This document shows positions 150 through 58,897 of a stretch of 64,000 nucleotides of DNA, piece after piece. The stretch is from a virus. Under the pieces are notes generated by a model. The model was not told where the DNA came from. It was given only the letters and a program-made list of their open reading frames with translations, and searched no databases. Positions within the stretch are counted from its first letter, which is position 1, and the number at the start of each line of letters is the position of its first letter. The translations under genes were made by a program, and so were the position numbers. The stretch lies in IMG/VR virus record IMGVR_UViG_3300048687_000087, positions 13,413-77,412 of that record. One strand, given 5' to 3'.

Positions 150-176
150 ATCCACCAACTCACAGAGGAGCAGGAC

Positions 177-383
177 ATGGGACGCAACAACACGACCTCC
201 GCCAACCACGCTGGCGACATCGGCGACGGCGACAACGTGATCTCCGGCGTCAAGGGGTCGGTGGCACTGAACGGTGACGTCCACAACAACACAAGCGAGA
301 GCACCGGCCAGCGCACCGTCTCCGGCAAGGACAGGACCGTGGTCAAGGGCGACAACACCGCCACCATCTCCCGCAGCTTCTGA
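177..383 (+). CDS. Small G/N/D/T-rich protein, amyloid/beta-arch-like repeats
   Basis: GAGGAG RBS, 68 aa, GDIGDGDNVISG / NGDVHNN / KGDNTAT. Confidence 0.75.
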   Translation: MGRNNTTSANHAGDIGDGDNVISGVKGSVALNGDVHNNTSESTGQRTVSGKDRTVVKGDNTATISRSF

Positions 384-426
384 CCCGCACCACCCCAACC
401 CATTCATTGACACGAAGGAGCACGTC

Positions 427-633
427 ATGCCCGGAGCCCGTCATTCTCTCGGCGCCACGACCAGCAGCCTGAAGGCCGAGATTGAGGCCGACGTCGCTGC
501 GAACCGCGGCGCCCAGCGCGACATGGAGGCCGCCGGCAACCAGGCGATGGCCGCCCGCATGGGTGCCGCCGCCGACGAGTCGCTCGACGAGCTGAACGAC
601 TTCAAGGCAGGCAAGTGGAGCCCCCGCCCCTAA
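427..633 (+). CDS. Small helical hypothetical protein
   Basis: GAAGGAG RBS before ATG 427; 68 aa. Confidence 0.75.
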   Translation: MPGARHSLGATTSSLKAEIEADVAANRGAQRDMEAAGNQAMAARMGAAADESLDELNDFKAGKWSPRP

Positions 634-641
634 CCCGTTCG

Positions 642-673
642 CCTGCAGTTCGAGCAGGCCGAGGCACGCACCA
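642..673 (+). ncRNA. Degenerate mini tRNA-like element 2
   Basis: CCTGC-AGTTCGA-GCAGG-CCGAGGC-ACGCACCA keeps the 5-7-5-7 geometry and tail; the 5' acceptor strand pairs poorly. Confidence 0.4.
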
Positions 674-701
674 ACACCACTACCAATCTGAGGAGTTCGA
701 A

Positions 702-881
702 ATGGCGTATGAGAACCGGTCCAGTGAGCAGCTCAGGTCCAGCATTCAGAGCGCGGCCGAGGAGGGCCAGTTCCGGTCGTCCATCGGCGACAAGGTCGCG
801 GAGGACGAGGCGCACCGCACGATCGACCGCCGCCTGGACGAGCTGGAGCGGCGTGGCGATCTGACCTCGGACGGCCGCTGA
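702..881 (+). CDS. Small helical hypothetical protein, probable paralogue of 427-633
   Basis: GAGGAG RBS; 59 aa; shared S..L+..I...G....D..LDEL pattern. Confidence 0.75.
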   Translation: MAYENRSSEQLRSSIQSAAEEGQFRSSIGDKVAEDEAHRTIDRRLDELERRGDLTSDGR

Positions 882-887
882 CAGCCA

Positions 888-944
888 GCCCCGGCATCGC
901 TGCCGTGAGGGCGCCGCATCGGATGCGGTCCGGGGCGCGCACCA
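888..944 (+). ncRNA. Mini tRNA-like element 3
   Basis: GCCCCGG..GCC-GTGA-GGGC-GCCGC-ATCGGAT-GCGGT-CCGGGGC-GCGCACCA; perfect 7-bp acceptor stem. Confidence 0.6.
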
Positions 945-973
945 TCTCCAGCCCCTTCTTTGAGAGGAAGCAC

Positions 974-1189
974 ATGGCCACACATCGCGCGAAGCACAGC
1001 GGGGTTTCCAACACGGGCTCGATGCAGGGCGTCACGTTCGAGCCCGGCGACAACGACGACGACACCGGCCGTGGTTCGTCGTCCGGCGGCGGGATCACGA
1101 ACTCCGGCGTGATGCACAACGTCGTGGTCACGTCCGGCGACAACAACGTCGCCACCAACACCGAGACGACCGTCTACCGCCGCCGCTGA
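974..1189 (+). CDS. Small G/N/S/T-rich protein with two amyloid-like pseudo-repeats
   Basis: GAGAGGAAG RBS; NTGSMQGVTFEPGDN and NSGVMHNVVVTSGDNN. Confidence 0.75.
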   Translation: MATHRAKHSGVSNTGSMQGVTFEPGDNDDDTGRGSSSGGGITNSGVMHNVVVTSGDNNVATNTETTVYRRR

Positions 1190-1240: not shown

Positions 1241-1296
1241 GCCCCGGTTTCCAGCCGTGAGGGCGCCGGGTCGACTCCGGCCCGGGGCACGCACCA
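1241..1296 (+). ncRNA. Mini tRNA-like element 4
   Basis: GCCCCGG..GCC-GTGA-GGGC-GCCGG-GTCGACT-CCGGC-CCGGGGC-ACGCACCA. Confidence 0.65.
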
Positions 1297-1326
1297 TCCC
1301 AACCCACCCGAACGGAAGGAAGATCC

Positions 1327-1583: not shown

Positions 1584-1772
1584 ATGGCCCTGTTCAAGAA
1601 GTCCCCTGAGGTCGCCGCCCTGCGTGAGGCCGATGCTGCTCTGCACGCGAACCAGCGGCGTGAGGAAGCGGCCGGCATCGACTACGAGACGCCGGAGTAC
1701 AAGCGCCTCAACGCCGCGGCGAACGAGGCCGCCGACAAGGTGTCCCGCTGGCGCGGCGGCAACAAGCGCTGA
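1584..1772 (+). CDS. Small hypothetical protein
   Basis: GAGAGGA RBS; MALFKKSPEV... Confidence 0.75.
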   Translation: MALFKKSPEVAALREADAALHANQRREEAAGIDYETPEYKRLNAAANEAADKVSRWRGGNKR

Positions 1773-3819: not shown

Positions 3820-5955
3820 ATGACCACGACCGAGCCGATAACCGAGGTCGAAGAACGGCCTCTCAAGCTGGTCAAGCCGCCCGCCACCGAGACGCCCACG
3901 AAGACCCGTGCCGAGCGGCAGCGACTACGCCGCCTCAAGGCTGTGCTCGCCGACGAGCGCACCCGCGACGTGTACCGGCTCGCCGTCCGCCACGGCGCTT
4001 ACGTTGCGGGCGGCGCCCGGATCATCACCCGCCGCGGATGGGACGACCGCAGTACCGCCCGCTACCAGCGGATGATCCGCACCGCTGAAGCCGCAGGGAA
4101 CCGTGAACTCGCCGCCGACTGGGAAGAGCGCGCCCACCGGTTCCGGCAAGCACGCCACCAGCGCCGCATGGACCTCCTCACTTCCATGCGCAACGCGCCC
4201 AAAGCCGTCGGAGCCGGTGCCCTCACCGGCACGGGACTGCTCGCCGTCACCGGGATCGCCATCGCCGTCGCCAACAAGAACATCGCCGACATACTGCTGC
4301 CCTTCGAGTTCGTCATCGGCATCGTGAGCTGGGCATACGTCATCGCCAGCGTGGTGTGGGCGACCGTGAAGCTCGCAGGCCCCAGCCTGGCTGTGCTCGC
4401 CCTGTGGAACCTCGGACGCCAGCGGCAGGCGGCCCCGGCGTGGGCGCTGCCGGAGAAACTCCGCACTGACGGAGGCCCGATCACCCCGTCGATCGTGGTG
4501 AAAGCCTTCCGTGACCTGCGGATTAGCGACCTGAAGAAGGCCATCCTGGACATGGAGGATGGCGGCGCATCCATGCTGTCGCCGATCGTCATCGCAGGCT
4601 GCGGCGTCGAAGTCGACGTCACCTTGCCGTCCAGCGTCTCCACCGACGAGATCGAGGCAAAGCGGCGCAAGCTCGCCGAGAACCTCAACCGGCACGAGCA
4701 CGAGCTGTACATTTCTGTCGCTCCGCAGCCGCGGACGGTGAAGCTGTGGATCGCCGACTCCGGTGCTCTCGACGAGCCGATCGGGCCGTCGCCGCTGGTC
4801 ACAGACCCTGGCATGACCGCCGACTACAAGACCGGTCGTGCACCGTGGGGTGTCGACCTGCGCGGCGACGCCGTGTTGATGAGCCTGTTCCAGAAGATGG
4901 TGCTGGTCACGGGCCTGTCCAACCAGGGGAAGACGGCATCGTTGCGGGCCCTGGCTCTGTGGCTGGCTTTCGACCCGTCCGTCGAGTTCCGTATCGGTGA
5001 CCTCAAGGGCATCGGCGACTGGCGAATGTTCGTCGGCCTCGCCACCGTCGTGATCGAGGGGCCGACGGACGAGCACGTCATGGACGTCACGCACATGGTC
5101 GAGGACGGGTTCGAGGAGATGAACCGGAGGCTGCAGGCCCCCGAGGGCACTGTGTTCAAACCGCTGGTCATCATCGTTGACGAGGCGCAGGTCGCCTACG
5201 GGTCGGGTGCCCGGGAGACCTATGTGACGGACAACGGGACCGTGAAGTTCGGGGCACCTTACGGCGGGTCCAAGAGCACGAGCAGGTACTTCCGGGCCGT
5301 CAAGGGCATCCACGACCAGGGCCGCGCCGTCAACGTGCTGATCTGGGAAGGCACCCAGGACCCGACGAACGAAAACCTGCCCAAGCGGTCCCGCGAGGGC
5401 AACCACATCCGGGCAGCGCTGGTCCTCGGCACCAAGTCCCAGGCCGAGATGGCGCTCGGCGAGGCGCCCGTAGAGAAGGGCGCCGCACCGCACAAGCTGC
5501 GGCAGGGCTTCGACAAGGGACAACTCGTAGCCGCAGGTGAGGGCGTCCCGCTGGCCCCCGGCCAGGTGTCGCTGAACGTGCGCACGCACTACATCAGCAA
5601 CGACGACGCGAAGGAAGTCGCGGACCGGGCCAAGGCGCTGCGCAGGAAGGTCACCACGCTGCACAAGCTGGAGCCCGTCGAGGAACTGGACCCGCTGGCC
5701 GACATCGCAATCGTCATTGGCAGTACGGCGCGCATGCGGACGCAGGAAGTCCTTCAACTGCTGGCGGAACGCAACCCGGCTGGCTACCGAGAGTGGACGT
5801 TCCAGGACCTGAAGGAGGCCCTGGGAGTCGTCGACGCAGCCCCGCACAAGAGCGACGGGCAGATGGTCGTGGACCAACAGAAGGTCCAACGGGCCCTCGC
5901 CGAACGCGACTCCAAGGACCAGGGAGGCGAGAAGAAGACAGGGAGTTCTCCCTGA
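3820..5955 (+). CDS. traB: FtsK/SpoIIIE-family DNA translocase, TraB-like conjugal transfer ATPase
   Basis: N-terminal TM segments, Walker A GLSNQGKT, EMNRR, Walker B IIVDEAQ, QGRA, GTQDP, C-terminal wHTH-like domain; Spd-like neighbours. Confidence 0.8.
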   Translation: MTTTEPITEVEERPLKLVKPPATETPTKTRAERQRLRRLKAVLADERTRDVYRLAVRHGAYVAGGARIITRRGWDDRSTARYQRMIRTAEAAGNRELAADWEERAHRFRQARHQRRMDLLTSMRNAPKAVGAGALTGTGLLAVTGIAIAVANKNIADILLPFEFVIGIVSWAYVIASVVWATVKLAGPSLAVLALWNLGRQRQAAPAWALPEKLRTDGGPITPSIVVKAFRDLRISDLKKAILDMEDGGASMLSPIVIAGCGVEVDVTLPSSVSTDEIEAKRRKLAENLNRHEHELYISVAPQPRTVKLWIADSGALDEPIGPSPLVTDPGMTADYKTGRAPWGVDLRGDAVLMSLFQKMVLVTGLSNQGKTASLRALALWLAFDPSVEFRIGDLKGIGDWRMFVGLATVVIEGPTDEHVMDVTHMVEDGFEEMNRRLQAPEGTVFKPLVIIVDEAQVAYGSGARETYVTDNGTVKFGAPYGGSKSTSRYFRAVKGIHDQGRAVNVLIWEGTQDPTNENLPKRSREGNHIRAALVLGTKSQAEMALGEAPVEKGAAPHKLRQGFDKGQLVAAGEGVPLAPGQVSLNVRTHYISNDDAKEVADRAKALRRKVTTLHKLEPVEELDPLADIAIVIGSTARMRTQEVLQLLAERNPAGYREWTFQDLKEALGVVDAAPHKSDGQMVVDQQKVQRALAERDSKDQGGEKKTGSSP

Positions 5956-6118: not shown

Positions 6119-6859
6119 ATGCCATGCGTAGCCCACGACGAAGACCGACCCTGCGGCCGAGAGACCACCATGACCAGGCCCGTAGCGCTGTGTCACATCC
6201 ATCGTGTTCAGGTCGCACTCGCTGTCATGCCCGAGCTGCTGAGCGAACACCTGGCAAGCGCCGCAACGCCACTCGCAATACCGAGCCTCTTACAGGGGCC
6301 CCATGACCCCATCGTCTACTTCCTCGGCCACCGCGACCGCATCAAGATCGGGTTCACGACCAATCTCAAGAAGCGCGTCAACGCCCTCGCGCTGCGCCCC
6401 GGCAGCATCCTGCTGGCCCTGGACGGCAGCGCCGATCTCGAGCAGGCCCTGCACGCCCGCTTCGCTCCTGCGCAGGTCGGTGACACCGAGTGGTTCGACA
6501 GCACCCCAGAGATCCGGCACTACATCGACAACCGCAGCACGTGGGCGCATGGACTGGCGCGGCGAGGGCCGCTGGACAACCAGAGAAGGCCAACGCTCGA
6601 ACGGGCCTCGACCAATGCAGAGCGTGCAGTCCTGCTTGCCGATCTGGCAGAAGTTCTAGGAAGCGAGCCTCGTATGCGCACGAGGGAAGCACTGCAGCGT
6701 CTCGTCGAGAACGCGCCGGCCACGTATCGCAGCTGGACGTTCCGGGACCTCACCCAGGTACTTCGGGCCGCCAACTCGCCGCCTCGCACCTACCAGGGCT
6801 TTCCGGTCGTCGACCGGCAGTCCGTCCACACGGCTCTAGCCGCACAGCAGTCTCAGTAG
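6119..6859 (+). CDS. GIY-YIG/T5orf172-like protein fused to a copy of the TraB C-terminal domain
   Basis: VYFL..RIKIGFTTNLKKR..LEQALHARF..TEWF motif; C-terminus aligns with the TraB C-terminus; TTA codon at 6290. Confidence 0.75.
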   Translation: MPCVAHDEDRPCGRETTMTRPVALCHIHRVQVALAVMPELLSEHLASAATPLAIPSLLQGPHDPIVYFLGHRDRIKIGFTTNLKKRVNALALRPGSILLALDGSADLEQALHARFAPAQVGDTEWFDSTPEIRHYIDNRSTWAHGLARRGPLDNQRRPTLERASTNAERAVLLADLAEVLGSEPRMRTREALQRLVENAPATYRSWTFRDLTQVLRAANSPPRTYQGFPVVDRQSVHTALAAQQSQ

Positions 6860-6889
6860 CTACTTCACCCACCCAACCGAAGGAGTTCC

Positions 6890-7057
6890 GTGGCCAAGCC
6901 CAAGCCGTTGTACACGACCGGAGAGATCGCGCAGAACACGTTCATCGTCGGCACCGCCATGTTGCGCGGCGGGCGCCTCACCGACCGACAGAAGCGCCGT
7001 CTGGAACGAATCCGCGACAACGCCATGGACCGCGGCGGCGTCACCGACAAGCACTGA
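6890..7057 (+). CDS. Small hypothetical protein (55 aa, not in ORF track)
   Basis: GAAGGAG RBS, GTG start, open to TGA 7057. Confidence 0.6.
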   Translation: MAKPKPLYTTGEIAQNTFIVGTAMLRGGRLTDRQKRRLERIRDNAMDRGGVTDKH

Positions 7058-7080
7058 CCAACCCAACCCGAGGAGAACCC

Positions 7081-7293
7081 ATGTCCCACATGACCACCGC
7101 CCCGCCCGCCGTACCGGAGACCAGCCTGTCGATCGACACGTTCGAGACCGTCGGCACCCTCGACAACCTGCACCCCGCGAAGTGGACGTCGGTCGTCTAC
7201 GACCACGACGGCCAAATAGTCGCCAGCTCCGGCCTGAAGGACAGCGACCAGGAGTCCATCGACGCCGTCAACGCCCTGCTCGCCACGGTCTGA
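7081..7293 (+). CDS. Hypothetical protein
   Basis: GAGGAG RBS, ATG 7081. Confidence 0.65.
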   Translation: MSHMTTAPPAVPETSLSIDTFETVGTLDNLHPAKWTSVVYDHDGQIVASSGLKDSDQESIDAVNALLATV

Positions 7294-7314
7294 GACCGAG
7301 AGGAGACCAGCCCC

Positions 7315-7839
7315 GTGAACGCGCTGCCCGAGCCGCGCCCGACCACAGTGGCCGGGCAGCCTGGCCCCACCCTGTCCGACTCCATCCTCGAAGCCGCGGT
7401 CGACAAGGCCATCGAGACGGCCCGCGAGGAGGGCACCAGCCCGCAGGTGTTGATCGGGAACACGCCGCACGTCTCACAACCCGACAGCCGCATCGTGCCC
7501 ACCTGGGCGACGGGCATCGCGGTCGCCTCCCTCGGAGTTGGCGCCGGAGCGACGGGTCTCGGCTGTGCTGCCTGGCTGCTGTTCCAGGGGCTGTCGATGG
7601 TCAGCGTTCCGAGCCTGGAGCGGTTCGCATGGATCGTCATCGCCCCGTTCGCCGGACTCGCCATGGTCCTCACCGCCGGCGCCGCAGCCATCTCCAAGGC
7701 CAGGAAGGCGACCCCGCGCGAGATCCATAACCACAACAGCGGACCGGTCTTCGAGGACAACCGGCAGGACCACAGCACGACATCCACCCACAACAAGTGG
7801 TGGGGCAGGAGCTCCACCGAAACGGAGGGAAAGCCATGA
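7315..7839 (+). CDS. Two-TM membrane protein, Spd-like
   Basis: Two hydrophobic segments followed by EIHNHNSGPV; lies in the transfer cluster. Confidence 0.6.
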   Translation: MNALPEPRPTTVAGQPGPTLSDSILEAAVDKAIETAREEGTSPQVLIGNTPHVSQPDSRIVPTWATGIAVASLGVGAGATGLGCAAWLLFQGLSMVSVPSLERFAWIVIAPFAGLAMVLTAGAAAISKARKATPREIHNHNSGPVFEDNRQDHSTTSTHNKWWGRSSTETEGKP

Positions 7840-8159
7840 CCGACACCCCCACCACCCCGACCGTCGAGCAGTTGAGCGAGTCCGCGATCGCGCTCGGCGT
7901 CGAGGCGTACAAGGCCCACCGGGCGGCAGAACACACCGCGCCCGTCGTCAAGATGGCGTCCGCCGCCATTGCCAAAGCCGGGCAGGCCGGTGCTTCTGTC
8001 GGTTGGATCGCCGACCAGATCGACCTTCGGTATGCCGCATACCTGCTCAACATCCACACCCAGCCCGGATTTGAGGAGACCGTGGCGCTTGACGGAGACC
8101 TCGAGCACCCGGAGAACGCGGCCGGCGAGGTAGTCGACCTGACCGGGAAGGCGGCATGA
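7836..8159 (+). CDS. Hypothetical protein
   Basis: ATGA coupling, GGAGG RBS. Confidence 0.65.
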   Translation: MTDTPTTPTVEQLSESAIALGVEAYKAHRAAEHTAPVVKMASAAIAKAGQAGASVGWIADQIDLRYAAYLLNIHTQPGFEETVALDGDLEHPENAAGEVVDLTGKAA

Positions 8160-8353
8160 GCGGGCCCCTCGCACCGAAGCGACTCGCCACGCTTGCCGCG
8201 GGTACGACGGCCGCGCTCGCCGCGGTCGCCGGCGCCAGTCATGCGGCGGGTGCACCCGAGACGCTCGTCGCCGCCACGGTCGGTGTCCTCGGCTTCGGCG
8301 GGGTATCCGTCGCCGCCGCCATACGCGGACAGAAGCAGGAGGCGGTCCGGTGA
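8156..8353 (+). CDS. Small membrane protein
   Basis: ATGA coupling; hydrophobic. Confidence 0.6.
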   Translation: MSGPLAPKRLATLAAGTTAALAAVAGASHAAGAPETLVAATVGVLGFGGVSVAAAIRGQKQEAVR

Positions 8354-8787
8354 CGATGCAGACGCCCATGAGTATCGGGGACGCGTTCAACGGCTTCGAT
8401 TTCCGCACCAACGAGGGGCCCGAAGGGACCGACTACTTCTTCGCCGGACACCTCACGGCCGTACAGATCGCAGAAACGTACTACGCGATCTACCCCGAGC
8501 ACCGGACCCGATTCCCGTACACCGTTGACCCGGGCAGCGTCCGCCACACGTGGACGCGGTTCACTGAGCACGCCGACGACTGCTATCTCGTGACGGGCGA
8601 CGAGGAGCCGGGCCCGCTCAACTTCGAGGAGTTCTACATCTGTTGCACCTGCCACTCCGCAGGTAACTCGGAGGTGGGCACCGGCTACGAATACCGGCAC
8701 GCCCACCCCGCCACAGAAGGCCAGTCCGGGGCGATACCCGTTACGTGGGTGTCCATCCCCATGGCCCGCGAGGAGCTCGCTGCCTGA
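8350..8787 (+). CDS. Hypothetical protein
   Basis: GTGA coupling; 145 aa. Confidence 0.65.
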   Translation: MTMQTPMSIGDAFNGFDFRTNEGPEGTDYFFAGHLTAVQIAETYYAIYPEHRTRFPYTVDPGSVRHTWTRFTEHADDCYLVTGDEEPGPLNFEEFYICCTCHSAGNSEVGTGYEYRHAHPATEGQSGAIPVTWVSIPMAREELAA

Positions 8788-8801
8788 CCCGCAACATCAG
8801 C

Positions 8802-8830
8802 GCGCCCCGGCAGGTCTAGTGCCGGGGCGC
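8802..8830 (+). terminator. Hairpin terminator ending the accessory/transfer operon
   Basis: GCGCCCCGGCA / TGCCGGGGCGC 11-bp stem just after a stop codon. Confidence 0.6.
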
Positions 8831-8887
8831 TGCTGTGACCGTACATGGAGCCGACTGTTCCTCTCGCAGCGCGGGCAGACCAGTCGC

Positions 8888-9295
8888 ATGTCGACGCCCG
8901 GGAACGACGAGCAACGGCGGGCCGAAGACGCCCGCTTGTGGGAGCACTGGCTGCACGAAGAGGAAATGATCTTCCAGCGCGGCAACCTGTTCCTCATCGC
9001 TCAATCGCTCCTCGCCGTCGCGTACAGCACGATCGCGACAGGCATCGGGGAGCATGGGCAAGCGCGCGTCATGGCCGCGTTCGGGATCGCGCTGACCCTG
9101 GGCTGGCTGTTCGTGGGCGACCGGCACCTCAAGTTTCACCAGGCGATCTATCGGCGCACTTTGGGGAGATTCCCTGATGTTGCAGCTACTGAGGCCGCTT
9201 GTCGCAGGCCGGGCCCCACTACGCTGCCGTTCATCATTTATGGCCTGCCGTCCATGGCCGCGGTCATGTGGATTGTTCTGCTGATCATCACCTAG
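8888..9295 (+). CDS. Three-TM membrane protein (moron, possible phage-defence effector)
   Basis: EEEMIFQRGNLFLIAQSLL followed by TM helices; stand-alone gene between hairpins. Confidence 0.55.
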   Translation: MSTPGNDEQRRAEDARLWEHWLHEEEMIFQRGNLFLIAQSLLAVAYSTIATGIGEHGQARVMAAFGIALTLGWLFVGDRHLKFHQAIYRRTLGRFPDVAATEAACRRPGPTTLPFIIYGLPSMAAVMWIVLLIIT

Positions 9296-9307
9296 GCCGA
9301 CACGACA

Positions 9308-9338
9308 GGGCCCCGGCCGCTATCGGCGGTCGGGGCCT
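9308..9338. terminator. Probable bidirectional terminator
   Basis: GGCCCCGGCCGC / GCGGTCGGGGCC stem between convergent genes. Confidence 0.6.
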
Positions 9339-9341
9339 TCG

Positions 9342-9848
9342 TTAAGGCGTCTTCTTCAGGAGCTCGTCGAGTTCCGTCCGGCAGGCGTCTGAGTAGGCCT
9401 GTCGGCGAGACTCGAACGCGGGGCTGTAGTAACGCTCGTGGAACATGCTGCGGTCGCCGCCGTGTCTGAAGCTTATGAGGCCCTCGTCCAGCTCGCGTGC
9501 GTACTCATAGAGCGCCGTCGCGGCGGAGGCCACGGGTGCGGGCCCGTGGAGTTCGATGAGGGTGAACGATGTGACGAGCGGAGTCCATTCATCAAACAGG
9601 CTGAGCCACCGCTCCTCGTCATCGGGTGATCCATGGGAGTACGCCATGCAGGCATTGCGGTAGGCGGCAACATGGACGATGAAGTTCTCGTACACGGTGC
9701 GCCGTTTGTCGATCTCCGCTTTGCGGAGAGCGGCCTTCTCGCCTTCTTGTGCCTGCCTGAGGGCGTACCGGCTCGAGATTGCCTGACCTACGACGGCGGC
9801 GCCCCCACCGATGAGAGCGCCGATCACCCCTGCTATCGCACTATCCAT
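9342..9848 (-). CDS. N-terminally anchored hypothetical protein
   Basis: MDSAIAGVIGALIGGGAAVVG TM segment, then helical domain. Confidence 0.65.
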   Translation of the reverse strand: MDSAIAGVIGALIGGGAAVVGQAISSRYALRQAQEGEKAALRKAEIDKRRTVYENFIVHVAAYRNACMAYSHGSPDDEERWLSLFDEWTPLVTSFTLIELHGPAPVASAATALYEYARELDEGLISFRHGGDRSMFHERYYSPAFESRRQAYSDACRTELDELLKKTP

Positions 9849-9881
9849 GCGTGCGAGTCTCATGGTCGTGGAGATCAACTG

Positions 9882-10070
9882 TCAGGCGGTCGGCGCCGTT
9901 TGCTCTTGATCGTTACCCGCCGCCGGTACAGCACGCGCCACCCAGCCGCGGCCTGCCGCATCCGTCGGCGTGGTGGCGGGCTGTAACCCCATCCGCTCGC
10001 ATAGCAGCCGCAGTTGCTCCAGGCAGGCTGCACGGGATCCGGCGCGCACCATGAACACGACGTCGTCCAT
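9882..10070 (-). CDS. Small hypothetical protein
   Basis: 62-aa ORF in the minus-strand run. Confidence 0.5.
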   Translation of the reverse strand: MDDVVFMVRAGSRAACLEQLRLLCERMGLQPATTPTDAAGRGWVARAVPAAGNDQEQTAPTA

Positions 10071-10156
10071 GACTGGAGTGTGCCCGGGACGGTGGGGGAG
10101 TAGGGCCGAAACCCGGGAACCTTCGACTCAACGCTGCCTCAGGCCAAGGTCGACTC

Positions 10157-10885
10157 TCATGGCGACTGTGCCCACGTGCCGCAGTCACGTGAGGTGAACA
10201 GTTCTCCGGCGTTCACGGTTACCGTGATGCTCTTCGCAGCGGTTGCGAAGTGGTTGGCAAGGATGTCGCCGCCCTTTGTCGTCCGCTCCCAATAGCAGTC
10301 CGCGAGATCGCCCGTGGCACGGTACGTGCCTGGTGGTGCCGTTTCTGCGCTAAGCCCACCACCCTGCTTGATGGTGTACGTGCCCGACGACATGGTCCGA
10401 ACCGACACTGATCCGCCGAGGGCCTCGGCAATCTCCGTTGCGTGCTGCGGACACAGGGGCTTCGCGCCCTCCTTGAGGACCCGCTTCATCCCGGCGGTCA
10501 TCTCCGGCACCTGGTTCTTCGCGAGGGTCTCTGCCGCACCCGGCTCCCAAGAGTCCATCGACTCGCACATCATCAGCACGTACTCAGACGCCTGCGTATA
10601 TCCCTCGGCCTCCCAGCCTTTGGCGTCCGCGGTTGTATCGAATGCCAACGATGCCTTCGTATCCGGGTACTCGTCGGACGGTTCTTCTTCTGACTCGTCG
10701 ACGACGGCGTCGCCGCTATCGTCGCCGTAGCCCAAGTCCTTGTTGAGCTGGTCGATCGACTCGTCAGACGCTGTGGCCTTCTCGCGTGGAGTGTCATCTC
10801 CCCCGCAGCCCGCCGCACCGACCCCGAATACCGCCACTGCCATTACGGCAGCCCCCACCCTGCGCATGTTCCTCATGCCCCGCAT
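10157..10885 (-). CDS. Lipoprotein (possible superinfection-exclusion role)
   Basis: Signal peptide with lipobox AAGC; C-terminal PGTYR..DCYWER..SRDCGTW domain; exact start uncertain. Confidence 0.7.
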   Translation of the reverse strand: MRGMRNMRRVGAAVMAVAVFGVGAAGCGGDDTPREKATASDESIDQLNKDLGYGDDSGDAVVDESEEEPSDEYPDTKASLAFDTTADAKGWEAEGYTQASEYVLMMCESMDSWEPGAAETLAKNQVPEMTAGMKRVLKEGAKPLCPQHATEIAEALGGSVSVRTMSSGTYTIKQGGGLSAETAPPGTYRATGDLADCYWERTTKGGDILANHFATAAKSITVTVNAGELFTSRDCGTWAQSP

Positions 10886-10960
10886 AGTCCGCCGTCGATG
10901 CTGCAGGGAGAAGCGGTCTCCAGGATTCGCTGAACAGTCGTTACATTGCGGCGAGATGCC

Positions 10961-11134
10961 CTATCGCCCGCGGGTGCCATTGCGGGCCATGCGGGAGCGG
11001 GCGGCGTGGGTGCGGCCGGCGTTGCTGATGCGGGCGGCCTTCGTCTTGGAGGCCCCTTGTCGGCGGAGCGCGCGGTAGACGTTCCAGCGGCTGCGGTAGA
11101 CGAAGCCATGGCGTCCGCCTCGATCGCTGACCAT
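10961..11134 (-). CDS. Small highly basic protein
   Basis: GGAGG RBS; VYRALRRQGASKTKAARISN. Confidence 0.55.
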   Translation of the reverse strand: MVSDRGGRHGFVYRSRWNVYRALRRQGASKTKAARISNAGRTHAARSRMARNGTRGR

Positions 11135-11225
11135 GCGCACCTCCGGCCTCAGCTTCACCTTCAATAATGCGCCCGAGTGGGGTGTTGGTCAGGCCATAGG
11201 GGTGAAGTTTGTGGTGGTGACCTAC

Positions 11226-11240
11226 GATTCAAAGGTGAAG
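11226..11240 (+). promoter_or_regulatory. Late-gene motif GATTCAAAGGTGAAG, copy 1
   Basis: Identical 15-mer at 13419; variants at 11153 (inverted) and 34634. Confidence 0.55.
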
Positions 11241-11268
11241 GGTGTTCATTCTGGAGTCGAGGAGACCC

Positions 11269-11871
11269 ATGGCCGGCCCGTTTCCATACCGGAAGAAGAA
11301 CACGCCCGACCGCGTCCATGCTGCCGAGGTCGTCTTCGAACTCAAGGCGCGCGGCCTGACGTTCGCCGCCATCGACGATCTCACCTCCGATCCCGACGGC
11401 CCCACCGGCGGGCATCGCATTGCCGCCAGCACTGCCCGCGATCTCGTTCGTGAAGAAGCCGCGCGCCGCCTCGACCCGAAGATCGACACGTGGCGGGCCG
11501 TCGTCCTCGAACGCATCGAGAACGCCCTCCCGCGCCTCGACCGCCTTGAGCAAGTCGCCCTCGGCGTCCTGGAGAAGCACCACATCACCGTCAACAACGG
11601 GCGGATCATCAAGCTCGACGACGGCGAACCCCTCGCCGACTACGGGCCCGTCCTCGCCGCCATCGACCGCCTCGTCAAAATCGAAGGCGAACGCACGAAG
11701 AACCACGACGCCCTCCGCAAACTCTTCGGCCTCGACATGCCCGTCCGAGTCGACGCCACCATCACCGAAACCACCCAACAGGACATTGAACTGCAGGAAC
11801 TCATACGGGAAGCCAAGGTGAGGGTGGCGGGCGAAGAGCAGCAGATCACCGAAGGCGTCGACGAGGCCTGA
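11269..11871 (+). CDS. Terminase small subunit-like HTH protein
   Basis: Directly upstream of TerL; ELKARGLTFAAI HTH and RKLFGLDMP motif. Confidence 0.7.
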   Translation: MAGPFPYRKKNTPDRVHAAEVVFELKARGLTFAAIDDLTSDPDGPTGGHRIAASTARDLVREEAARRLDPKIDTWRAVVLERIENALPRLDRLEQVALGVLEKHHITVNNGRIIKLDDGEPLADYGPVLAAIDRLVKIEGERTKNHDALRKLFGLDMPVRVDATITETTQQDIELQELIREAKVRVAGEEQQITEGVDEA

Positions 11872-11872
11872 C

Positions 11873-13420
11873 ATGGTGACCGCGGTCCGCCCGCGCGGCT
11901 ATCTCGACGGCCTGGATGCCGAGTCGTTCGACCTTGACGTCTACCTCGCCCGGTTCGATGCCCGCCTTCTCGCCGACGAGGAGGGCCGGCGCACGCTCAC
12001 GCGCCTGGACCCGCTGCTGTTTGCGCTCGTCTACGCCCGGCATCATCTCCGAGATCCCGGGGGTCGGTTGACGTTCGGTGACGCGCACCTGGACTGGTGC
12101 CGTGCGGCCCGCGCCTGGGTGCGGCCAGCGATCACGCCAGCCGAGCAGCGTGACGCCTACGTCGCTCCTCGCAACATGGGCAAGAGCACTTGGTGGTTCC
12201 TGCTACTGCCGCTGTGGGCTGCCGCCCACGGGCATGCCCGGTTCGCTGCGGCGTTCGCATCGTCCGCGACTCAGGCGGAGACGCATCTGGGCACGTTCAA
12301 GCGGGAGATCGACTCGAATGAACTGCTGCGCCGCGACTTTCTCGACCTGTGCAGTCCCGCGAAGCGGCCGTCGGGTGGGAACGTCGCGGACACGCAGAAC
12401 ATGTACATCGCGAAGAACGGGTTCGTGTTCGCGGCCCGCGGTATCGACTCGTCGAACCTCGGCATGAAGGTTGGTGAAGCCCGACCCGACCTCATCCTGT
12501 GCGATGACATTGAGCCCGATGAGTCGAGCTACAGCCTTGACCTGGCCCGCAAGCGGCGCACCACGCTCATCGACTCGATCCTGCCGCTCAATGTGTACGC
12601 GAGGGTGGTCATCTCCGGCACGGTCACCATGCCGGGCAGCATCATCCACCAACTGGTCAAGCACGGTCGGGGCGTCGAGACCGCGGACTGGATTGGCGAG
12701 GAGGGTTTCCGTGCGCATTGCACCGCGCCGATCGTGCAGCGTGCCGACGGAACGGAGCGCAGCGTGTGGCCGGCGAAGTGGCCGCTCGCCTACCTCAAGT
12801 CGATTGAGCACACCCGCTCGTTCGCGAAGAACTACGCCAACGACCCGATGGGTGCGGACGGTGAGCTGTGGGCGCCGGAAGACTTCCGCTATCCCGGCGA
12901 CGAGGGTGTGGATCCGGTGACGCACATGATGCTGTCGATCGACCCGGCGGTCACCGCGAAGAAGGGCTCGGACTATACGGGGATGGCGGTCGTGTCGTGG
13001 TCGGCGCGGCATCGCCGGTGCACGGTGCATGCGGCGATCGGCTTGAAGATTCAGCCGGGCCCGCTGCTGCGGGAGCGAGTGCTGGCTCTGCTGGATGAGT
13101 ATCCGCAGATCGGTCTGATTCTGATCGAGGTCAACCAGGGTGGCGATACGTGGGAGGCGATCCTTCATGGCATGCCGGTGAAGGTGAAGACGGTTTCGCA
13201 GGCGGAGAACAAGTTCACGCGCGCCGAGGGGGTGTTGAACCACTATCAGCGCGGCCGAGTCATTCACGCCCGCCGCCTGGTGGAGGCTGAGCAGCAGATG
13301 TGCGCGTTTCCGAAGGCCCCGCACGACGACCTGGTCGACGCTGTGGGTTCGGCGATCCGCCGGTTCATCCCCAACAAGCCGCGCGAGATCTTCAAGGCGA
13401 GTAGCGCCAGTTACCTTTGA
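11873..13420 (+). CDS. terL: Terminase large subunit
   Basis: APRNMGKST Walker A, LILCDDIE Walker B, SIDPA and HDDLVDA nuclease motifs. Confidence 0.95.
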   Translation: MVTAVRPRGYLDGLDAESFDLDVYLARFDARLLADEEGRRTLTRLDPLLFALVYARHHLRDPGGRLTFGDAHLDWCRAARAWVRPAITPAEQRDAYVAPRNMGKSTWWFLLLPLWAAAHGHARFAAAFASSATQAETHLGTFKREIDSNELLRRDFLDLCSPAKRPSGGNVADTQNMYIAKNGFVFAARGIDSSNLGMKVGEARPDLILCDDIEPDESSYSLDLARKRRTTLIDSILPLNVYARVVISGTVTMPGSIIHQLVKHGRGVETADWIGEEGFRAHCTAPIVQRADGTERSVWPAKWPLAYLKSIEHTRSFAKNYANDPMGADGELWAPEDFRYPGDEGVDPVTHMMLSIDPAVTAKKGSDYTGMAVVSWSARHRRCTVHAAIGLKIQPGPLLRERVLALLDEYPQIGLILIEVNQGGDTWEAILHGMPVKVKTVSQAENKFTRAEGVLNHYQRGRVIHARRLVEAEQQMCAFPKAPHDDLVDAVGSAIRRFIPNKPREIFKASSASYL

Positions 13421-52289: not shown

Positions 52290-53105
52290 ATGTCCCAACT
52301 CGGACAACCCACCCGACCCGCACCCCGCGCCGAACAGAACGGCTCTGAGCCGCAGTTCACGTTCCAGCCCGCCAGCAAGGCAGGCCGCAAAGCCCGACTG
52401 TCCATCCAAGGCATGTCCGGCTCCGGCAAGACATGGACCGGCCTCGGTATCTGCCACGGCCTTTCCGAGGGCCGCAAGTTCGCCGTCATCGACACCGAGA
52501 AGGGCGCCGCCAGCCTCTACGCCGGCATCGGAGGCATCCAGTTCGACAGCCTCGCCATGGATCGCTACGACCCCCGCGACCTCGCCCGCGCCCTCGACGC
52601 CGCCGCACAAGCCGGATACCCCACCGTCTTCGTCGACTCCCTCTCCCACTTCTGGAAAGGCGCCGACGGCACCCTCGACCAGGTCGAGAAGGCCAAGTCG
52701 AAGTACGGCGGCAACAAGTTCGCCGGCTGGAAAGACGGCACCCCCATGCAGAACGACATGGTCGCCGCGATCCTCGCCTACCCCGGCCACGTCGTCGCCT
52801 CGATGCGCTCCTACACCGAGTGGGTCCTGGACGGCGGAAAGCCCCAGCGCGTCGGCATGCGTCCCGAACAGCGCAAGGGCATCGAGTACGAATTCGACGT
52901 CGCCGTCGCCATGGACATCGACAACACCCTCGAAGTCCTCAAGTCCCGCTGCCCCGGCCTCAACCGCAAGGTGATGCCGCGTCCGCAGGGAGCCCGCGAC
53001 ATCGCCGCCCCGCTCCTCGCCTGGCTCAGCGCCGCCCCCGAGCAGCCGACGGACACCACGGCCGGCCCGCCGCCGGACGAACCCATCGGCCCCGACCAGC
53101 AGTAG
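52290..53105 (+). CDS. AAA ATPase, Sak4-like recombination protein
   Basis: GMSGSGKT, VIDTE, VDSLSH, EYEFD. Confidence 0.85.
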   Translation: MSQLGQPTRPAPRAEQNGSEPQFTFQPASKAGRKARLSIQGMSGSGKTWTGLGICHGLSEGRKFAVIDTEKGAASLYAGIGGIQFDSLAMDRYDPRDLARALDAAAQAGYPTVFVDSLSHFWKGADGTLDQVEKAKSKYGGNKFAGWKDGTPMQNDMVAAILAYPGHVVASMRSYTEWVLDGGKPQRVGMRPEQRKGIEYEFDVAVAMDIDNTLEVLKSRCPGLNRKVMPRPQGARDIAAPLLAWLSAAPEQPTDTTAGPPPDEPIGPDQQ

Positions 53106-53165
53106 CCCGCACACGCCTGAGCCGCCCGCGGGCAATGCGGGCGGCTCCCCAACAGGAGACCACAC

Positions 53166-53408
53166 ATGACCGTGCGAACCATGCACCAGAACGAAGCCGA
53201 CCTCCGTACTGCGCTCACCATCCTCGCCGAACGCTACGAGGCCATCGCCGCGAAGGCCGAGTCGGACGTCGCCAAGGCGCGCGTCCGGCAGATCAGCCAG
53301 GTCGCCCGCGACATCCGCACCGTCCTCACCACCGGCCGCATCCCCGACTACCTCGCCGCAGCCGCCCCGCTCGCCGACACCCAGAACGACGAGGAGACCG
53401 CGTCATGA
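53166..53408 (+). CDS. Hypothetical protein
   Basis: AGGAG RBS. Confidence 0.6.
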   Translation: MTVRTMHQNEADLRTALTILAERYEAIAAKAESDVAKARVRQISQVARDIRTVLTTGRIPDYLAAAAPLADTQNDEETAS

Positions 53409-54460
53409 GCGACACCACGACGATCGAGTGGACCGACTCGACCTGGAACCCCGTCACCGGCTGCACCAAGGTCACGCCGGGCTGCGACAACTGCTACGCC
53501 GAGACGTTCGCCGAGCGCTGGCGCGGCACGCCAGGTCACCACTTCGAGAACGGCTTCGACCTCACCCTCCGCCCCAACGCCCTCACCATGCCGCTGCGCT
53601 GGCGCAAGCCCCGCAAGGTCTTCGTCAACAGCATGTCCGACCTGTTCCACAAGGACATCCCCGACGAATACATCGCCCGCGTGTTCGCCGTCATGGCGCT
53701 CACCACGCAGCACACCTACCAGGTGCTGACCAAGCGGCACGGGCGAATGCGGTCCCTCCTGAACAGCAGCGACTTTCGGCTCGCCTGCGAGACGGCCCAA
53801 GCCGAACTCATCAATGACGAGTCGACGCCGATGTCGTACTACGAGCGTGAGCAGAAGACCTCGCAGTGGTGGAGCGACTTCGCCAAGCCACTTCGGAACG
53901 TGTGGCTCGGCGTCAGCGTCGAAGACCAGCAGCGTGCTGACCTCCGCATCCCGGCCCTTCTGGAGACCCCCGCCGCAGTCCGCTTCCTGTCCTGCGAACC
54001 GCTCCTCGGCCCCGTCGACCTTCACCTGCCCGTCGACCACTCGACCCACGAGCGGGACCACATCGACGGAACGCCGTGGCCGCAGTGCCTCGACTGCTCC
54101 ACCCAGGACACCTCGGTCGACTGGACTGTTCCAGACGGGCCCGGCATCGGATGGGTGATCGTCGGCGGTGAATCGGGCCGCAATGCCCGTCCTATGAGCC
54201 CCGACTGGGCCCGTGACCTCCGCGACCAATGCCAGACCGCCAACGTCCCCTTCTTCTTCAAGCAGTTCGGCGAGTACCAGCCCACAGACCGCATGGCCAT
54301 CGGTCGCCCCCAGAAGGGCCACGCCCTCGTCGGCGACCCCATCGACGACCTCGGCCACCGCTGGGAAATGCGCCGCGTCGGCAAGAAGGCCGCCGGCCGC
54401 GAACTCGACGGCCGCACCTGGAATCAGGTCCCTGCCGTCACGACGGGAGTCGCATCATGA
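53405..54460 (+). CDS. DUF5131 (phage Gp37/Gp68) family protein
   Basis: IEWTDSTWNPVTGCTKVTPGCDNCYA, FVNSMSDLFH, SCEPLLG, GGESG, FFKQ. Confidence 0.92.
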   Translation: MSDTTTIEWTDSTWNPVTGCTKVTPGCDNCYAETFAERWRGTPGHHFENGFDLTLRPNALTMPLRWRKPRKVFVNSMSDLFHKDIPDEYIARVFAVMALTTQHTYQVLTKRHGRMRSLLNSSDFRLACETAQAELINDESTPMSYYEREQKTSQWWSDFAKPLRNVWLGVSVEDQQRADLRIPALLETPAAVRFLSCEPLLGPVDLHLPVDHSTHERDHIDGTPWPQCLDCSTQDTSVDWTVPDGPGIGWVIVGGESGRNARPMSPDWARDLRDQCQTANVPFFFKQFGEYQPTDRMAIGRPQKGHALVGDPIDDLGHRWEMRRVGKKAAGRELDGRTWNQVPAVTTGVAS

Positions 54461-56292: not shown

Positions 56293-57086
56293 CCACCACC
56301 CACACACCGAGCCGCGCCTGCTACCTGCACGGATGCCGGACCGAGGCATGCAGGCAGGCCAACTACCGATACATGAGCCGCATCCGGCTCGACTACGAAC
56401 GAGGCCAGCGGCGCCGAAGCGACGCCACCCAGCCCCGCGCCCACATCGAACAACTCCTCGCCCTCGGCTGGACCCAAGCCCAGATCTCCCGCCGCGCAGG
56501 ACTCGCACACCGCACCATCGGCGCCATCATCACCGGCTGCACCAAAGTCTCGAACAACACCGCCAGGGCCATCCTCAACGTGCCGCTCGGCCCCGCACCA
56601 GCCGACTCCCGCGACATCGACGCCACCGGCACCACCCGCCGCGTCCAAGCCCTCATCGCCATCGGCTACCCCGCCACCTACCTCGCCGGCCGGTTCGGAC
56701 TCGCCGAGAGCGCCCTCGGACGCATCGCCCGCGGCGAGATGGCCCACGTCCGCACCACCACCGCAGACACCGTCGCCCTCGACTACCGGATGCTCTCCCG
56801 CATCCCCGGACCAAACCAGCGCGCCCGCAACGACGCACGACGGAAGGGCTGGCACGGCCCCCTCGCCTGGGACGACGACATCGACGACCCCACCGCACTG
56901 CCCGACATCGACCAGCACGACGACAAGCGCGGAAGGCCCGCCCAGATCGACGAACACCGTGTCGTCCGCCTGGCCCGCGAAGGCCTTACCAACGCACAGA
57001 TCGCCCAACGAATCGGCTGCCACGTCCGAACCGTCACCCGCGCCCGCGGACGCGTACTCACCAACGACCTCAAGGAAGCCGCCTGA
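56289..57086 (+). CDS. Multi-HTH DNA-binding protein
   Basis: CYLHGCR; GWTQAQIS; RRVQALIAIG; PLAWDDDIDDP; C-terminal HTH. Confidence 0.75.
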   Translation: MTTTHTPSRACYLHGCRTEACRQANYRYMSRIRLDYERGQRRRSDATQPRAHIEQLLALGWTQAQISRRAGLAHRTIGAIITGCTKVSNNTARAILNVPLGPAPADSRDIDATGTTRRVQALIAIGYPATYLAGRFGLAESALGRIARGEMAHVRTTTADTVALDYRMLSRIPGPNQRARNDARRKGWHGPLAWDDDIDDPTALPDIDQHDDKRGRPAQIDEHRVVRLAREGLTNAQIAQRIGCHVRTVTRARGRVLTNDLKEAA

Positions 57087-58897
57087 TGGCCCGCAACGAC
57101 AACGACGCACTCACGGTCATGGACTGGTTCTGCGGCGCCGGCGGCTCCTCACAGGCCATGCACTCCATCCCCGGCGTCCGCATGGAACGAGCAGCGAACC
57201 ACTGGCAGCGGGCGATCGAGTCGCACGCCGCGAACTTCCCGACCGTCGACCACTACCAGGGCGACATCCGCGAAGCACCCGTCGACAAGTGGCCCGTCAC
57301 CGACATCTTCTGGGCATCCCCGGAATGCCCGCAGTGGTCCAACGCCCGCGGCAAGAAGCGGAACTTCGACGCCTCCATGCAGGGCGACCTCTTCGACGAC
57401 TTCGGCCCCTCCGAGGAAGAGGAACGCTCACGCGCACTCATGGAGGAAGTCCCCATGTACCTGCGCGGCGTCCAGGAACGCGGCGGACTCGTCAAGGCCG
57501 GTGTGGTCGAGAACGTCGTCGACGTCCGCGCCTGGGACCAGTGGGACCGCTGGATAGGCGAGATCCGCAAACTCGGCTACAAGACCCGCGTCATCGCCCT
57601 CAACTCGATGCACGCCGACCCGCGCGCCGTTCACAAAGCCCCGCAGTCCCGCGACCGCCTGTACGTCGCCTACTGGCACGAGTCCCTCGGCCGCACCCCC
57701 GACTGGGACAAATGGCTGCGCCCGCGCGCCTGGTGCACCGGCTGCGACACCTGGGTGCAGGCCGTACAGCGGTTCAAGCAGCCCGGCCGCGACATGGGCC
57801 GATACCGCCAGCAATACGTCTACCGCTGCCCCAACACCCGCTGCCGCAGCCAGATCGTCGAACCCGAGACGCTGCCCGCCGCCGCTGCGATCGACTGGAC
57901 GATCCCCGGCCAGCGCATCGGAGACCGCGGCAAGCCGCTCGCCGACAAGACGCTCGCCCGCATCCAGGCCGGCCTCGACAAGTTCGCCCGCCCGATCACG
58001 CTGGAGGCGGCGGGCAACACGTTCGAGCGGCGTCCCGGGGTGCGCACCTGGCCCGTCGACGCACCGTTGACGACGCAGACGACGACGGCAACCAAGGCCA
58101 TGGCCTACGAGCCGTTCATGGTCCCCGCCGGAGGAACCTGGCGCAACGACCCGTCCAGCGTCCTCGACCCCATGGCCTGCCGCACCACCCGCGAGAACGA
58201 CGGCCTCGCAATCCCGCCGCTACTCATCCCCGTCGAAGGCCGCGACGGCAAAGAGCCCGCCTCGGCGAACGCCCCGCTCCGCACCCAGACCGCCCGCAAC
58301 GAAACCGGCCTCGCCTGGCTCCCGTTCATGGTCACCATGCGCGGAGGCGGCGACCAGCTTCGCGGCCGATCCATCGCAGAACCCGTAGGCACCGTGTCCG
58401 CGAACGGCAACCACCACGGCCTCGTCACCCCGGACCTGCCCGCGTTCGTGATGCGCAACAACGGCAGCACCGGCGACGGCGGCGAGCACTGCACCAGCGC
58501 GGCCGAGTACCTCCGCACCATGACCACCGCCGGCCATCAGTCCCTCGTCACCTGGGAGCACCTCCTCGTCCCCTACTACGGCAACGGCACCGCGCGCACG
58601 GTCCGCGAGCCCGTCGGCACCCTCTCCACCCGCGACCGATACGCCCTCGTGACGGGCGACGTCGACATCAACGACGTCCTCTTCCGGATGCTCGAACCCC
58701 ACGAGATCGGCCGCGCCATGAGCTTCGCCGACACCTACATCGTCCTCGGCAACAAGCGGGAAAAGGTCCGCCAACTCGGCAACGCCGTCACCCCGCCCGC
58801 CGCCGAAGTCATCGTCTCCGCCCTCGTCGAAGCCATCACCGGCGAAGACATCGACCGGCACAACGAGCGCGGCCCCGAGCTCGCCGCCGCGGCCTAG
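57086..58897 (+). CDS. DNA cytosine-5 methyltransferase
   Basis: FCGAGG, ASPEC, VENV, PQSRDR, RQLGNAV. Confidence 0.93.
   Translation: MARNDNDALTVMDWFCGAGGSSQAMHSIPGVRMERAANHWQRAIESHAANFPTVDHYQGDIREAPVDKWPVTDIFWASPECPQWSNARGKKRNFDASMQGDLFDDFGPSEEEERSRALMEEVPMYLRGVQERGGLVKAGVVENVVDVRAWDQWDRWIGEIRKLGYKTRVIALNSMHADPRAVHKAPQSRDRLYVAYWHESLGRTPDWDKWLRPRAWCTGCDTWVQAVQRFKQPGRDMGRYRQQYVYRCPNTRCRSQIVEPETLPAAAAIDWTIPGQRIGDRGKPLADKTLARIQAGLDKFARPITLEAAGNTFERRPGVRTWPVDAPLTTQTTTATKAMAYEPFMVPAGGTWRNDPSSVLDPMACRTTRENDGLAIPPLLIPVEGRDGKEPASANAPLRTQTARNETGLAWLPFMVTMRGGGDQLRGRSIAEPVGTVSANGNHHGLVTPDLPAFVMRNNGSTGDGGEHCTSAAEYLRTMTTAGHQSLVTWEHLLVPYYGNGTARTVREPVGTLSTRDRYALVTGDVDINDVLFRMLEPHEIGRAMSFADTYIVLGNKREKVRQLGNAVTPPAAEVIVSALVEAITGEDIDRHNERGPELAAAA

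Follow-up and report, generated by a model that had tools for sequence, protein, structure and literature searches.

A phage microprotein resembling the C-terminal tail of a Streptomyces TIR protein, a possible decoy of motif-based defence signalling

The virus record IMGVR_UViG_3300048687_000087 comprises 77,412 bp, carries direct terminal repeats and has a CheckV completeness estimate of 100. With a G+C content of 65-70%, an SPP1-type portal and further large structural-looking genes, it is a complete 77.4-kb tailed phage. The host most likely belongs to the Streptomycetaceae because the phage encodes a TraB/FtsK-like protein with 55-67% identity to loci from this family. Our analysis covered bases 13413-77412 of the record, a stretch of 64,000 nucleotides that we refer to as the window. 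Close to its beginning lie two short open reading frames (ORFs), here termed ORF1 and ORF2 (Table 1), within an array of about ten microgenes. A sequence-only reading of this DNA had taken their products for free-standing amyloid signalling motifs that might act as decoys of NLR-type host defence. Both ORFs are indeed present with the sequence strings quoted there and encode 68 and 71 amino acids, respectively. As detailed below, ORF1 resembles, over virtually its whole length, the tail of a TIR protein from Streptomyces whose presumed sensor carries the same motif.

That both ORFs are coding is well supported by G+C content at the three codon positions, which amounts to 0.51/0.51/0.91 in ORF1 and 0.54/0.54/0.92 in ORF2, by a ribosome-binding site (RBS) at the right distance from each start codon and by an in-frame indel in a relative of ORF2. 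The codon-position pattern is that of the long genes of the phage and is absent from the overlapping antisense frames. Glycine, asparagine and valine are abundant in both peptides, as are aspartate, threonine and serine, while proline and leucine are nearly absent and glutamine occurs once per peptide. Taken together, G, N, D, T, S and V make up 69% of ORF1 and ORF2 as compared to a proteome median of 35.5% (crude call, 98 phage genes), and asparagine alone reaches 10-12% versus 1.9% for the phage proteome. Amyloid signalling motifs of the BASS/HRAM type, at 20-25 aa per unit, are characterized by much G, N, Q, V and I and little K, P and L, which the two peptides match in part. A bias of this kind is also typical of beta-helical proteins.

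The earlier observation that the peptides have no evident globular domain holds. Pfam, PHROGs, NCBIfam, PADLOC and PDB sequences yielded nothing useful, and the AlphaFold2 monomer models are unstructured, lacking any secondary structure at pLDDT values of 55 for ORF2 and 39 for ORF1, the latter even with a 27-row alignment. ORF1 gave a weak match to a grass ice-binding beta-roll (E 0.04); for ORF2 the PDB sequence search produced no match at E<=10. In the ESM Atlas, the model of ORF2 resembles beta-helix coils, albeit at low confidence, and the same three small clusters from Actinomycetota are nearest to both ORFs (0.80-0.85), which is a lead only. Neither peptide contains a signal peptide or a hydrophobic stretch, and a relationship between the two is not demonstrable (p 0.2).

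Table 1. Features discussed in the text (window coordinates; GC3, G+C content at the third codon position)
Feature	Position	Strand	Details
ORF1	177..383	+	68 aa, rich in G/N/D/T/S/V; GC3 0.91, RBS, score with the TIR-tail profile
RBS of ORF1	164..169	+	GAGGAG, 7 nt ahead of ATG 177; read from the sequence
ORF1 residues 19-40	231..296	+	aligned to ..VIKGxxGPVHTGxGDIYxNS.., the motif shared by tail and partner; H-T-G core replaced by A-L-gap
ORF2	974..1189	+	71 aa, composition like that of ORF1, two pseudo-repeats; GC3 0.92
RBS of ORF2	961..969	+	GAGAGGAAG, ahead of ATG 974; read from the sequence
ORF2 repeat unit 1, DNA copy	999..1066	+	71% identical to 1089-1156; protein halves z 5.1
ORF2 Gly/Ser-rich linker between the units	1058..1090	+	site of the sole indel (2 aa) relative to P0002
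ORF2 repeat unit 2	1089..1156	+	near-invariant in P0002, one Thr-to-Ser change
Hairpin followed by (G/C)GGGCACGCACCA, four copies	100-156, 640-680, 902-953, 1254-1305		25-40 nt 5' of the starts at 177, 702, 974 and 1327
TraB/FtsK-like protein	3820-5955		711 aa; 55-67% identity to chromosomal loci of 27 Streptomycetaceae genomes

ORF1 and the tail of a TIR protein from Streptomyces

When 301 Streptomyces genomes were searched with ORF1, four out of five matches at E<=0.005 fell on the C-terminal tail of one and the same 251-aa protein, in which a TIR_2 domain is recognized above the Pfam cutoff at residues 4-139. These four matches span ORF1 residues 8-67 at 33-39% identity, with a best E of 2e-4 per genome, and the Smith-Waterman scores of ORF1 against the tails lie at 90-99 compared to 39+-7 for shuffled sequences (z 7.4-8.5). 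Against a profile built from 34 tails, ORF1 scores 21.2 bits, its residues 7-68 being aligned with profile positions 11-74, and not one of 20,000 composition-matched ORF1 shuffles attained this value (maximum 17.6). Among the 703 ORFs in the six frames of the phage, ORF1 was the top hit of the profile; an N-terminally extended version of the ORF1 frame scored 18.8 and the next unrelated frame 7.6. Tails of Bell-domain proteins that carry described amyloid signalling sequences (BASS) did not exceed 11.9 bits. Comparison of ORF1 with the TIR tails by hhalign gave a probability of 69% (P 4.5e-5).

The tail profile consists of the blocks TGDVG..VIKG, GPVHTGxGDIY and SGDGxTYxEGDNxGGIxHxF, with which ORF1 is collinear. 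In the multiple alignment the order and spacing of four G-D turns are kept between ORF1 and the tails, and ORF1 terminates at a conserved aromatic residue that, in the host tails, immediately precedes a charged terminus. ORF1 constitutes a stand-alone copy of the tail because it has neither an attached TIR_2 domain nor a partner gene with a 4-nt overlap; the gene downstream is an unrelated 68-aa ORF. Judged by its sequence, it resembles the ~85-aa C-terminal extension of TIR_2 proteins from one end to the other while having no effector part. A second copy of the ORF1 motif was not found in the six frames of the phage.

The TIR_2 family itself is widespread. Matches at E<=1e-8 are present in 108 of 401 Streptomycetaceae genomes, and 64 of them reach into the tail. 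In all 34 loci the start of a long gene overlaps the stop codon of the TIR gene by 4 nt. The encoded partner protein comprises ~670 aa and contains a P-loop, and a 19-aa motif of the tail recurs at its N-terminus (G-P-V-H-T-G-x-G-D-I-Y). With the TIR-tail profile the median score of these N-termini is 16.5 bits (range 5.1-27.0), and cognate tail/N-terminus pairs are slightly more alike than non-cognate ones (39.3% versus 36.2%, permutation p 0.004). The same motif thus resides on the C-terminus of the effector and on the N-terminus of an adjacent STAND-like protein in 34 of the 34 host loci, while the phage ORFs stand alone.

Amyloid signalling pairs have been defined by exactly such a layout, i.e., adjacent colinear genes that specify an effector with the motif at its C-terminus and an NLR-like protein with the motif at its N-terminus (bioRxiv 10.1101/2020.01.06.895854). 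The pairs described there as BASS1-10 combine a Bell, TIR2, CHAT or hydrolase effector with an NB-ARC or NACHT protein, and TIR2 effectors with BASS motifs are mentioned in the same work. The family matched by ORF1 shares the defining arrangement, and its motif likewise abounds in G, N, D and V and contains little P, L or K. It differs in that the partner is only weakly STAND-like, and the phage peptides differ from all such pairs in occurring alone. We were unable to place GPVHTGxGDIY in any of the named BASS classes. The TIR tail appears to couple the TIR effector to its sensor, and the architecture suggests that the host pair may do so by forming amyloid.

One of the loci (L099, G233:C16:151000-168000) deserves mention for its gene content. 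Here, positions 6325-11943 accommodate a regulator with HTH_31 and TPR domains, the tailed TIR_2 protein and the overlapping partner (TIR/partner operon at 7647-10411), which in this case is 670 aa long with the P-loop GTPGSGRTS. Furthermore, the cluster encodes a protein of 422 aa that weakly matches TPR-S, and a Bell-domain protein whose C-terminus is formed by a BASS2-type motif (VHNNISGGVQHGPVIQ). The cluster looks like a defence island because the HTH-TPR regulator and the BASS2-tailed Bell protein adjoin the TIR pair.

Described amyloid motifs and the relatives of ORF2

Of the amyloid motif families that the earlier reading had named, RHIM and HET-s were not borne out for either peptide. 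Neither ORF matches RHIM (PF12721) or HET-s (PF11558) in Pfam at E<=1, the sigma motif likewise gave no Pfam match, and the RHIM core tetrad I/V-Q-I/V-G occurs in neither peptide. For a comparison with BASS motifs of the Bell type, a library of 45 distinct tails of the BASS6 and BASS2 types was assembled from Streptomyces genome loci. The BASS6 Bell gene published for S. scopuliridis, located with a short degenerate pattern, led to 120 Bell proteins, and 50 further, more diverse Bell loci including those with BASS2-type tails were added. Against the 45 tails no order-specific likeness beyond composition was apparent (p 0.12 for ORF1 and 0.07 for ORF2), and with a narrow BASS6 profile ORF1 obtained 1.8 and ORF2 -0.5 bits. 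A likeness to BASS6 noticed by eye had reached p 0.01 on a narrow set picked after looking and was discarded when the wider library gave the values just cited. Composition-matched shuffles themselves score high against the Bell tails (mean 38 versus 27-30 for other microproteins), and the likeness of ORF1 and ORF2 to Bell BASS6 and BASS2 is therefore compositional. Instances of BASS1-10 are listed in Table S2 of Dyrka et al. (bioRxiv 10.1101/2020.01.06.895854); the examples for BASS1, 3, 4, 5 and 7-10, compared by eye only, are unlike ORF1 and ORF2. An unclassified double-repeat pair of Streptomyces populi from the same table was also set aside as unlike either ORF by eye. The Bell BASS6 profile picks up the N-termini of adjacent long genes as well, i.e., the copies of the motif on the NLR side (L044, L047, L048, L054, L059 and L064), so that the search method recovers known pairs.

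Pseudo-repeats had been noted in both peptides. They are genuine in ORF2, the two halves of which align with z 5.1 (p 3e-4) as the result of an internal duplication, and not significant in ORF1 (p 0.07). A protein on another contig (31 kb), P0002, annotated with 57 aa, is 86-89% identical to ORF2, and the sole indel between the two is in-frame. A HMMER scan of 1.84 billion representatives returned only ORF2, P0002 and two repeat proteins, one Calx-beta-like and the other of low complexity, which were rejected as spurious. P0002 apart, similarity searches in phage, viral-contig, metagenome and genome collections did not reveal any relative of ORF2, and a second copy of its repeat unit was not found in the six frames of the phage. 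ORF2 is also unlike the TIR tails (-0.7 bits with the profile, hhalign probability 0.3%).

In the 301 and 401 genomes all matches to ORF2 have E>=0.0024 per genome, and nearly all of them lie on beta-helix coils. The recurrent target is a secreted Streptomyces protein of ~1200 aa with a beta-helix domain; its alignment with ORF2 is gap-free over 47-53 residues at ~32% identity and covers two coils (GPMDGLTF..GGVTNSKVTNSDIRNTGDDGIATW; L030, L133-L135). This likeness stands at z ~6 against shuffles, yet at E ~0.003 per genome over 702 genomes, and was taken as compositional. That ORF2 is a captured gene fragment seems less likely. It may target a defence system outside the sample, although nothing ties it to any system.

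Regarding form, ORF2 is reminiscent of HET-s(218-289) and the HRAM motif (PF11558). It shares with them two pseudo-repeats of ~20 aa, a flexible Gly-rich loop of ~10 aa that differs in length among relatives and a monomer predicted to be disordered. It differs in the absence of a sequence match (Pfam E>1), in a repeat period of 30 instead of 36 aa and in having neither a HeLo or other attached domain nor an NLR partner. The same form of two repeats plus loop is met on the effector side of BASS1, BASS6 and HET-s; the repeat in ORF1 falls short of it, as stated above.

A possible decoy and competing explanations

Fungi, animals and filamentous bacteria all possess amyloid-type motif pairs through which a sensor is connected to a killer protein. 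In the host pair described here, the sensor would normally hand activation to the TIR effector via pairing or templating of the shared motifs. We propose that the phage makes ORF1 early in infection and that the peptide co-assembles with the N-terminal motif of the sensor or with the TIR tail. A dead-end complex would result because ORF1 has neither a TIR domain nor the H-T-G core; the TIR effector would not be activated, and abortive infection would be blocked in much the same way as herpesvirus RHIM proteins act against necroptosis (RIPK3). On the basis of sequence and analogy, we give such a decoy function of ORF1, jamming the coupling between TIR and STAND-like protein, a chance that is considerable but does not quite reach even.

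The closest parallel is provided by the RHIM proteins of herpesviruses, namely murine cytomegalovirus (MCMV) M45, herpes simplex virus (HSV) ICP6/ICP10 and varicella-zoster virus (VZV) ORF20 (PMC7375649; bioRxiv 10.1101/324590), which are also viral copies of a motif minus the effector function and which are thought to divert assembly into non-signalling complexes (PMC7375649; PMC13506858). Differences are the absence of the RHIM core (I/V-Q-I/V-G) from ORF1, the bacterial host and the extent of the copied sequence, a whole tail of ~60 aa in ORF1 versus a motif of 18-22 aa in the herpesvirus proteins; the decoy role of ORF1 is proposed by analogy. In Escherichia coli, the abortive-infection pair Bab/Agp with its BASS11 motif demonstrates that bacteria can be protected from phage by an effector and a sensor that a shared amyloid motif couples (bioRxiv 10.1101/2024.11.07.622273). 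Since this pair defends against phage, a phage has reason to target such coupling. Bab/Agp differs from the pair matched by ORF1 in its effector, which is the pore-forming Bab and not a TIR protein, in its sensor and in its motif, and the paper describes no phage inhibitor. A more general parallel may be offered by CARD-only proteins, discussed in connection with bacterial CARD/gasdermin defence (PMC10312443). There, too, an immune coupling module would exist as an adaptor-only copy, with the difference that CARD is a folded death-fold domain and not a short disordered motif.

Several observations weigh against the decoy proposal. The similarity on which it builds is modest (21 bits, HH probability 69%) and connects two sequences with equally biased composition. 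The best single-genome E of 2e-4 rises to ~0.06 when multiplied by 301 genomes, the four matches are mutually orthologous, and ORF1 itself was the query that led to the family. Within the invariant core H-T-G-x-G, ORF1 reads A-L-gap-N-G, so that the invariant H and G are missing, one residue is deleted and the last G alone is retained. Loss of H-T-G would be in keeping with a cap that does not propagate, and to the same degree it calls the proposal into question. On the host side, the match of the partner to nSTAND3 stays below threshold (21.8 bits versus a cutoff of 27.2), and ORF2 has no host counterpart among the 702 genomes. Similarity searches of phage, viral-contig and metagenome data and of genome collections turned up no relative of ORF1, which is an orphan also in a word-indexed search of 5.8 billion protein clusters. 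AlphaFold2 sees no structure in the monomers, which neither supports nor excludes fibril formation. Finally, a free amyloid-competent motif could trigger the effector instead of silencing it, as aggregated BASS11 does when it activates Bab.

The strongest competing explanation is compositional coincidence. ORF1 and ORF2 would then be orphan disordered early microproteins with some other host target, and their likeness to tails and beta-helices would reflect a shared turn-forming bias towards G, N, D, T, S and V. The already high scores of shuffled sequences against Bell tails are in line with this idea, and the z of ~6 that ORF2 reaches against coils of an unrelated secreted protein illustrates how easily such matches arise; the missing H-T-G core, an HH probability of just 69% and the lack of phage relatives in the collections searched fit as well. 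It is, however, difficult to reconcile with coincidence that the score of ORF1 with the TIR-tail profile lies above those of all 20,000 shuffled versions and that the alignment runs from end to end, with the spacing of the four G-D turns kept and a C-terminal aromatic residue common to both. Moreover, the best matches of ORF1 do not lie among the far commoner beta-helix proteins but in a rare class of sequences, the effector tail of a motif pair, which the hypothesis had predicted beforehand. Weighing these points, we consider the relationship between ORF1 and the TIR tail to be probably real and coincidence possible, though rather unlikely.

ORF2, and perhaps ORF1 as well, might instead self-assemble as a beta-solenoid or cross-beta structure for a role other than in immunity, for example as a scaffold or by an effect on the cell envelope or the development of a filamentous host. 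The two significant pseudo-repeats of ORF2 with their flexible linker of variable length, its beta-helix-like ESM Atlas model of low confidence and the weak ice-binding beta-roll match of ORF1 would agree with this. It is improbable in our view, given that both peptides are devoid of a signal peptide or hydrophobic stretch, that no confident fold is predicted and that homologues for inferring such a function are absent.

ORF1 could also be a true homologue of the tail without being an inhibitor, i.e., a trigger or adaptor that sets off the TIR system to exclude competing phages or uses the motif to recruit a phage or host protein. The evidence for homology is the same as for the decoy, and activation of effectors by free aggregated motifs is documented for [Het-s]/HET-S and for BASS11-GFP with Bab. 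Early killing of the cell would, however, harm a lytic phage, a matching motif is present in no protein of the phage, and ORF1 has lost core residues that the host pairs retain, all of which makes us regard this option as decidedly improbable. Hardly any weight is given to the idea that the ORFs are untranslated and the region functions as RNA or DNA with four structured intergenic elements, for although hairpins and GGGGCACGCACCA elements precede both ORFs and ORF1 is an orphan, GC3 values of 0.91-0.92 in exactly these frames, well placed RBS and the in-frame indel in the ORF2 relative speak against it.

Returning to the decoy proposal, the original idea of a phage copy of a host NLR-type motif is specifically supported for ORF1, which matches a TIR tail whose STAND-like partner shares the motif; for ORF2 the 702 genomes hold no counterpart. 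The wider notion of a phage cassette of free-standing mimics, ORF1 directed against the TIR/STAND pair and ORF2 against an unsampled system, which would jam the hand-over from sensor to effector probably in an amyloid-like manner, is tentative, and we rather doubt it. If true, it would represent a class of anti-defence that hits the signal-transmission step itself in filamentous actinomycetes and a bacterial counterpart of the herpesvirus RHIM decoys. Our literature search brought up no paper in which phages are described to encode mimics of the amyloid signalling motifs of bacteria, and a review from August 2026 leaves phages unmentioned. The 68-aa phage peptide and the TIR/STAND operon, which occurs in about one quarter of the sampled Streptomycetaceae genomes and is documented here together with its shared motif, form a candidate pair for testing. 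Should ORF1 inhibit the pair, activation of the TIR effector could be studied with it in a simple way.

Genomic setting of the microgenes

Each of the four hairpin elements listed in Table 1 lies shortly upstream of a microgene, and no further copy exists in the 77-kb genome. In three of the four, a GCCCCGG-like 5' strand can pair with a CCGGGGC 3' strand, resulting in the look of an acceptor stem plus T-arm. ARAGORN and Rfam gave no match to these elements, and their folding energies are unexceptional (z -0.65 to -0.93). Further downstream, window positions 1584-1772 and 1866-2072 contain paralogous microgenes (MALFKKS.. and MALFRRS..) for which the flanking intergenic sequence is duplicated on both sides (repeat families D10, D12 and D13). 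The microgene array has expanded through cassette duplication.

Directly upstream of ORF1, the phage encodes a NUDIX hydrolase (78 bits, genome 12306-12800; L001:295-789) and a protein with a RapZ C-terminal domain (76 bits, genome 13104-13508; L001:1093-1497). One might speculate that the NUDIX enzyme, given its position beside a putative TIR-tail mimic, has to do with the products that TIR proteins derive from NAD.

The relatives of the TraB/FtsK-like protein are encoded at loci in Streptomyces, Actinacidiphila and Streptacidiphilus genomes. Small-ORF arrays beside the TraB-like genes at 27 bacterial loci contain nothing resembling ORF1 or ORF2, and tblastn with the TraB-like protein found no match among 50,697 deposited phage records. 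It is unusual for a tailed phage to carry such a translocase of the conjugation type. Two further large genes of the window specify a 675-aa protein with a C-terminal DUF5131 domain (342 bits, positions 52433-54460) and an 854-aa protein with a C-5 cytosine methylase domain (positions 56333-58897).

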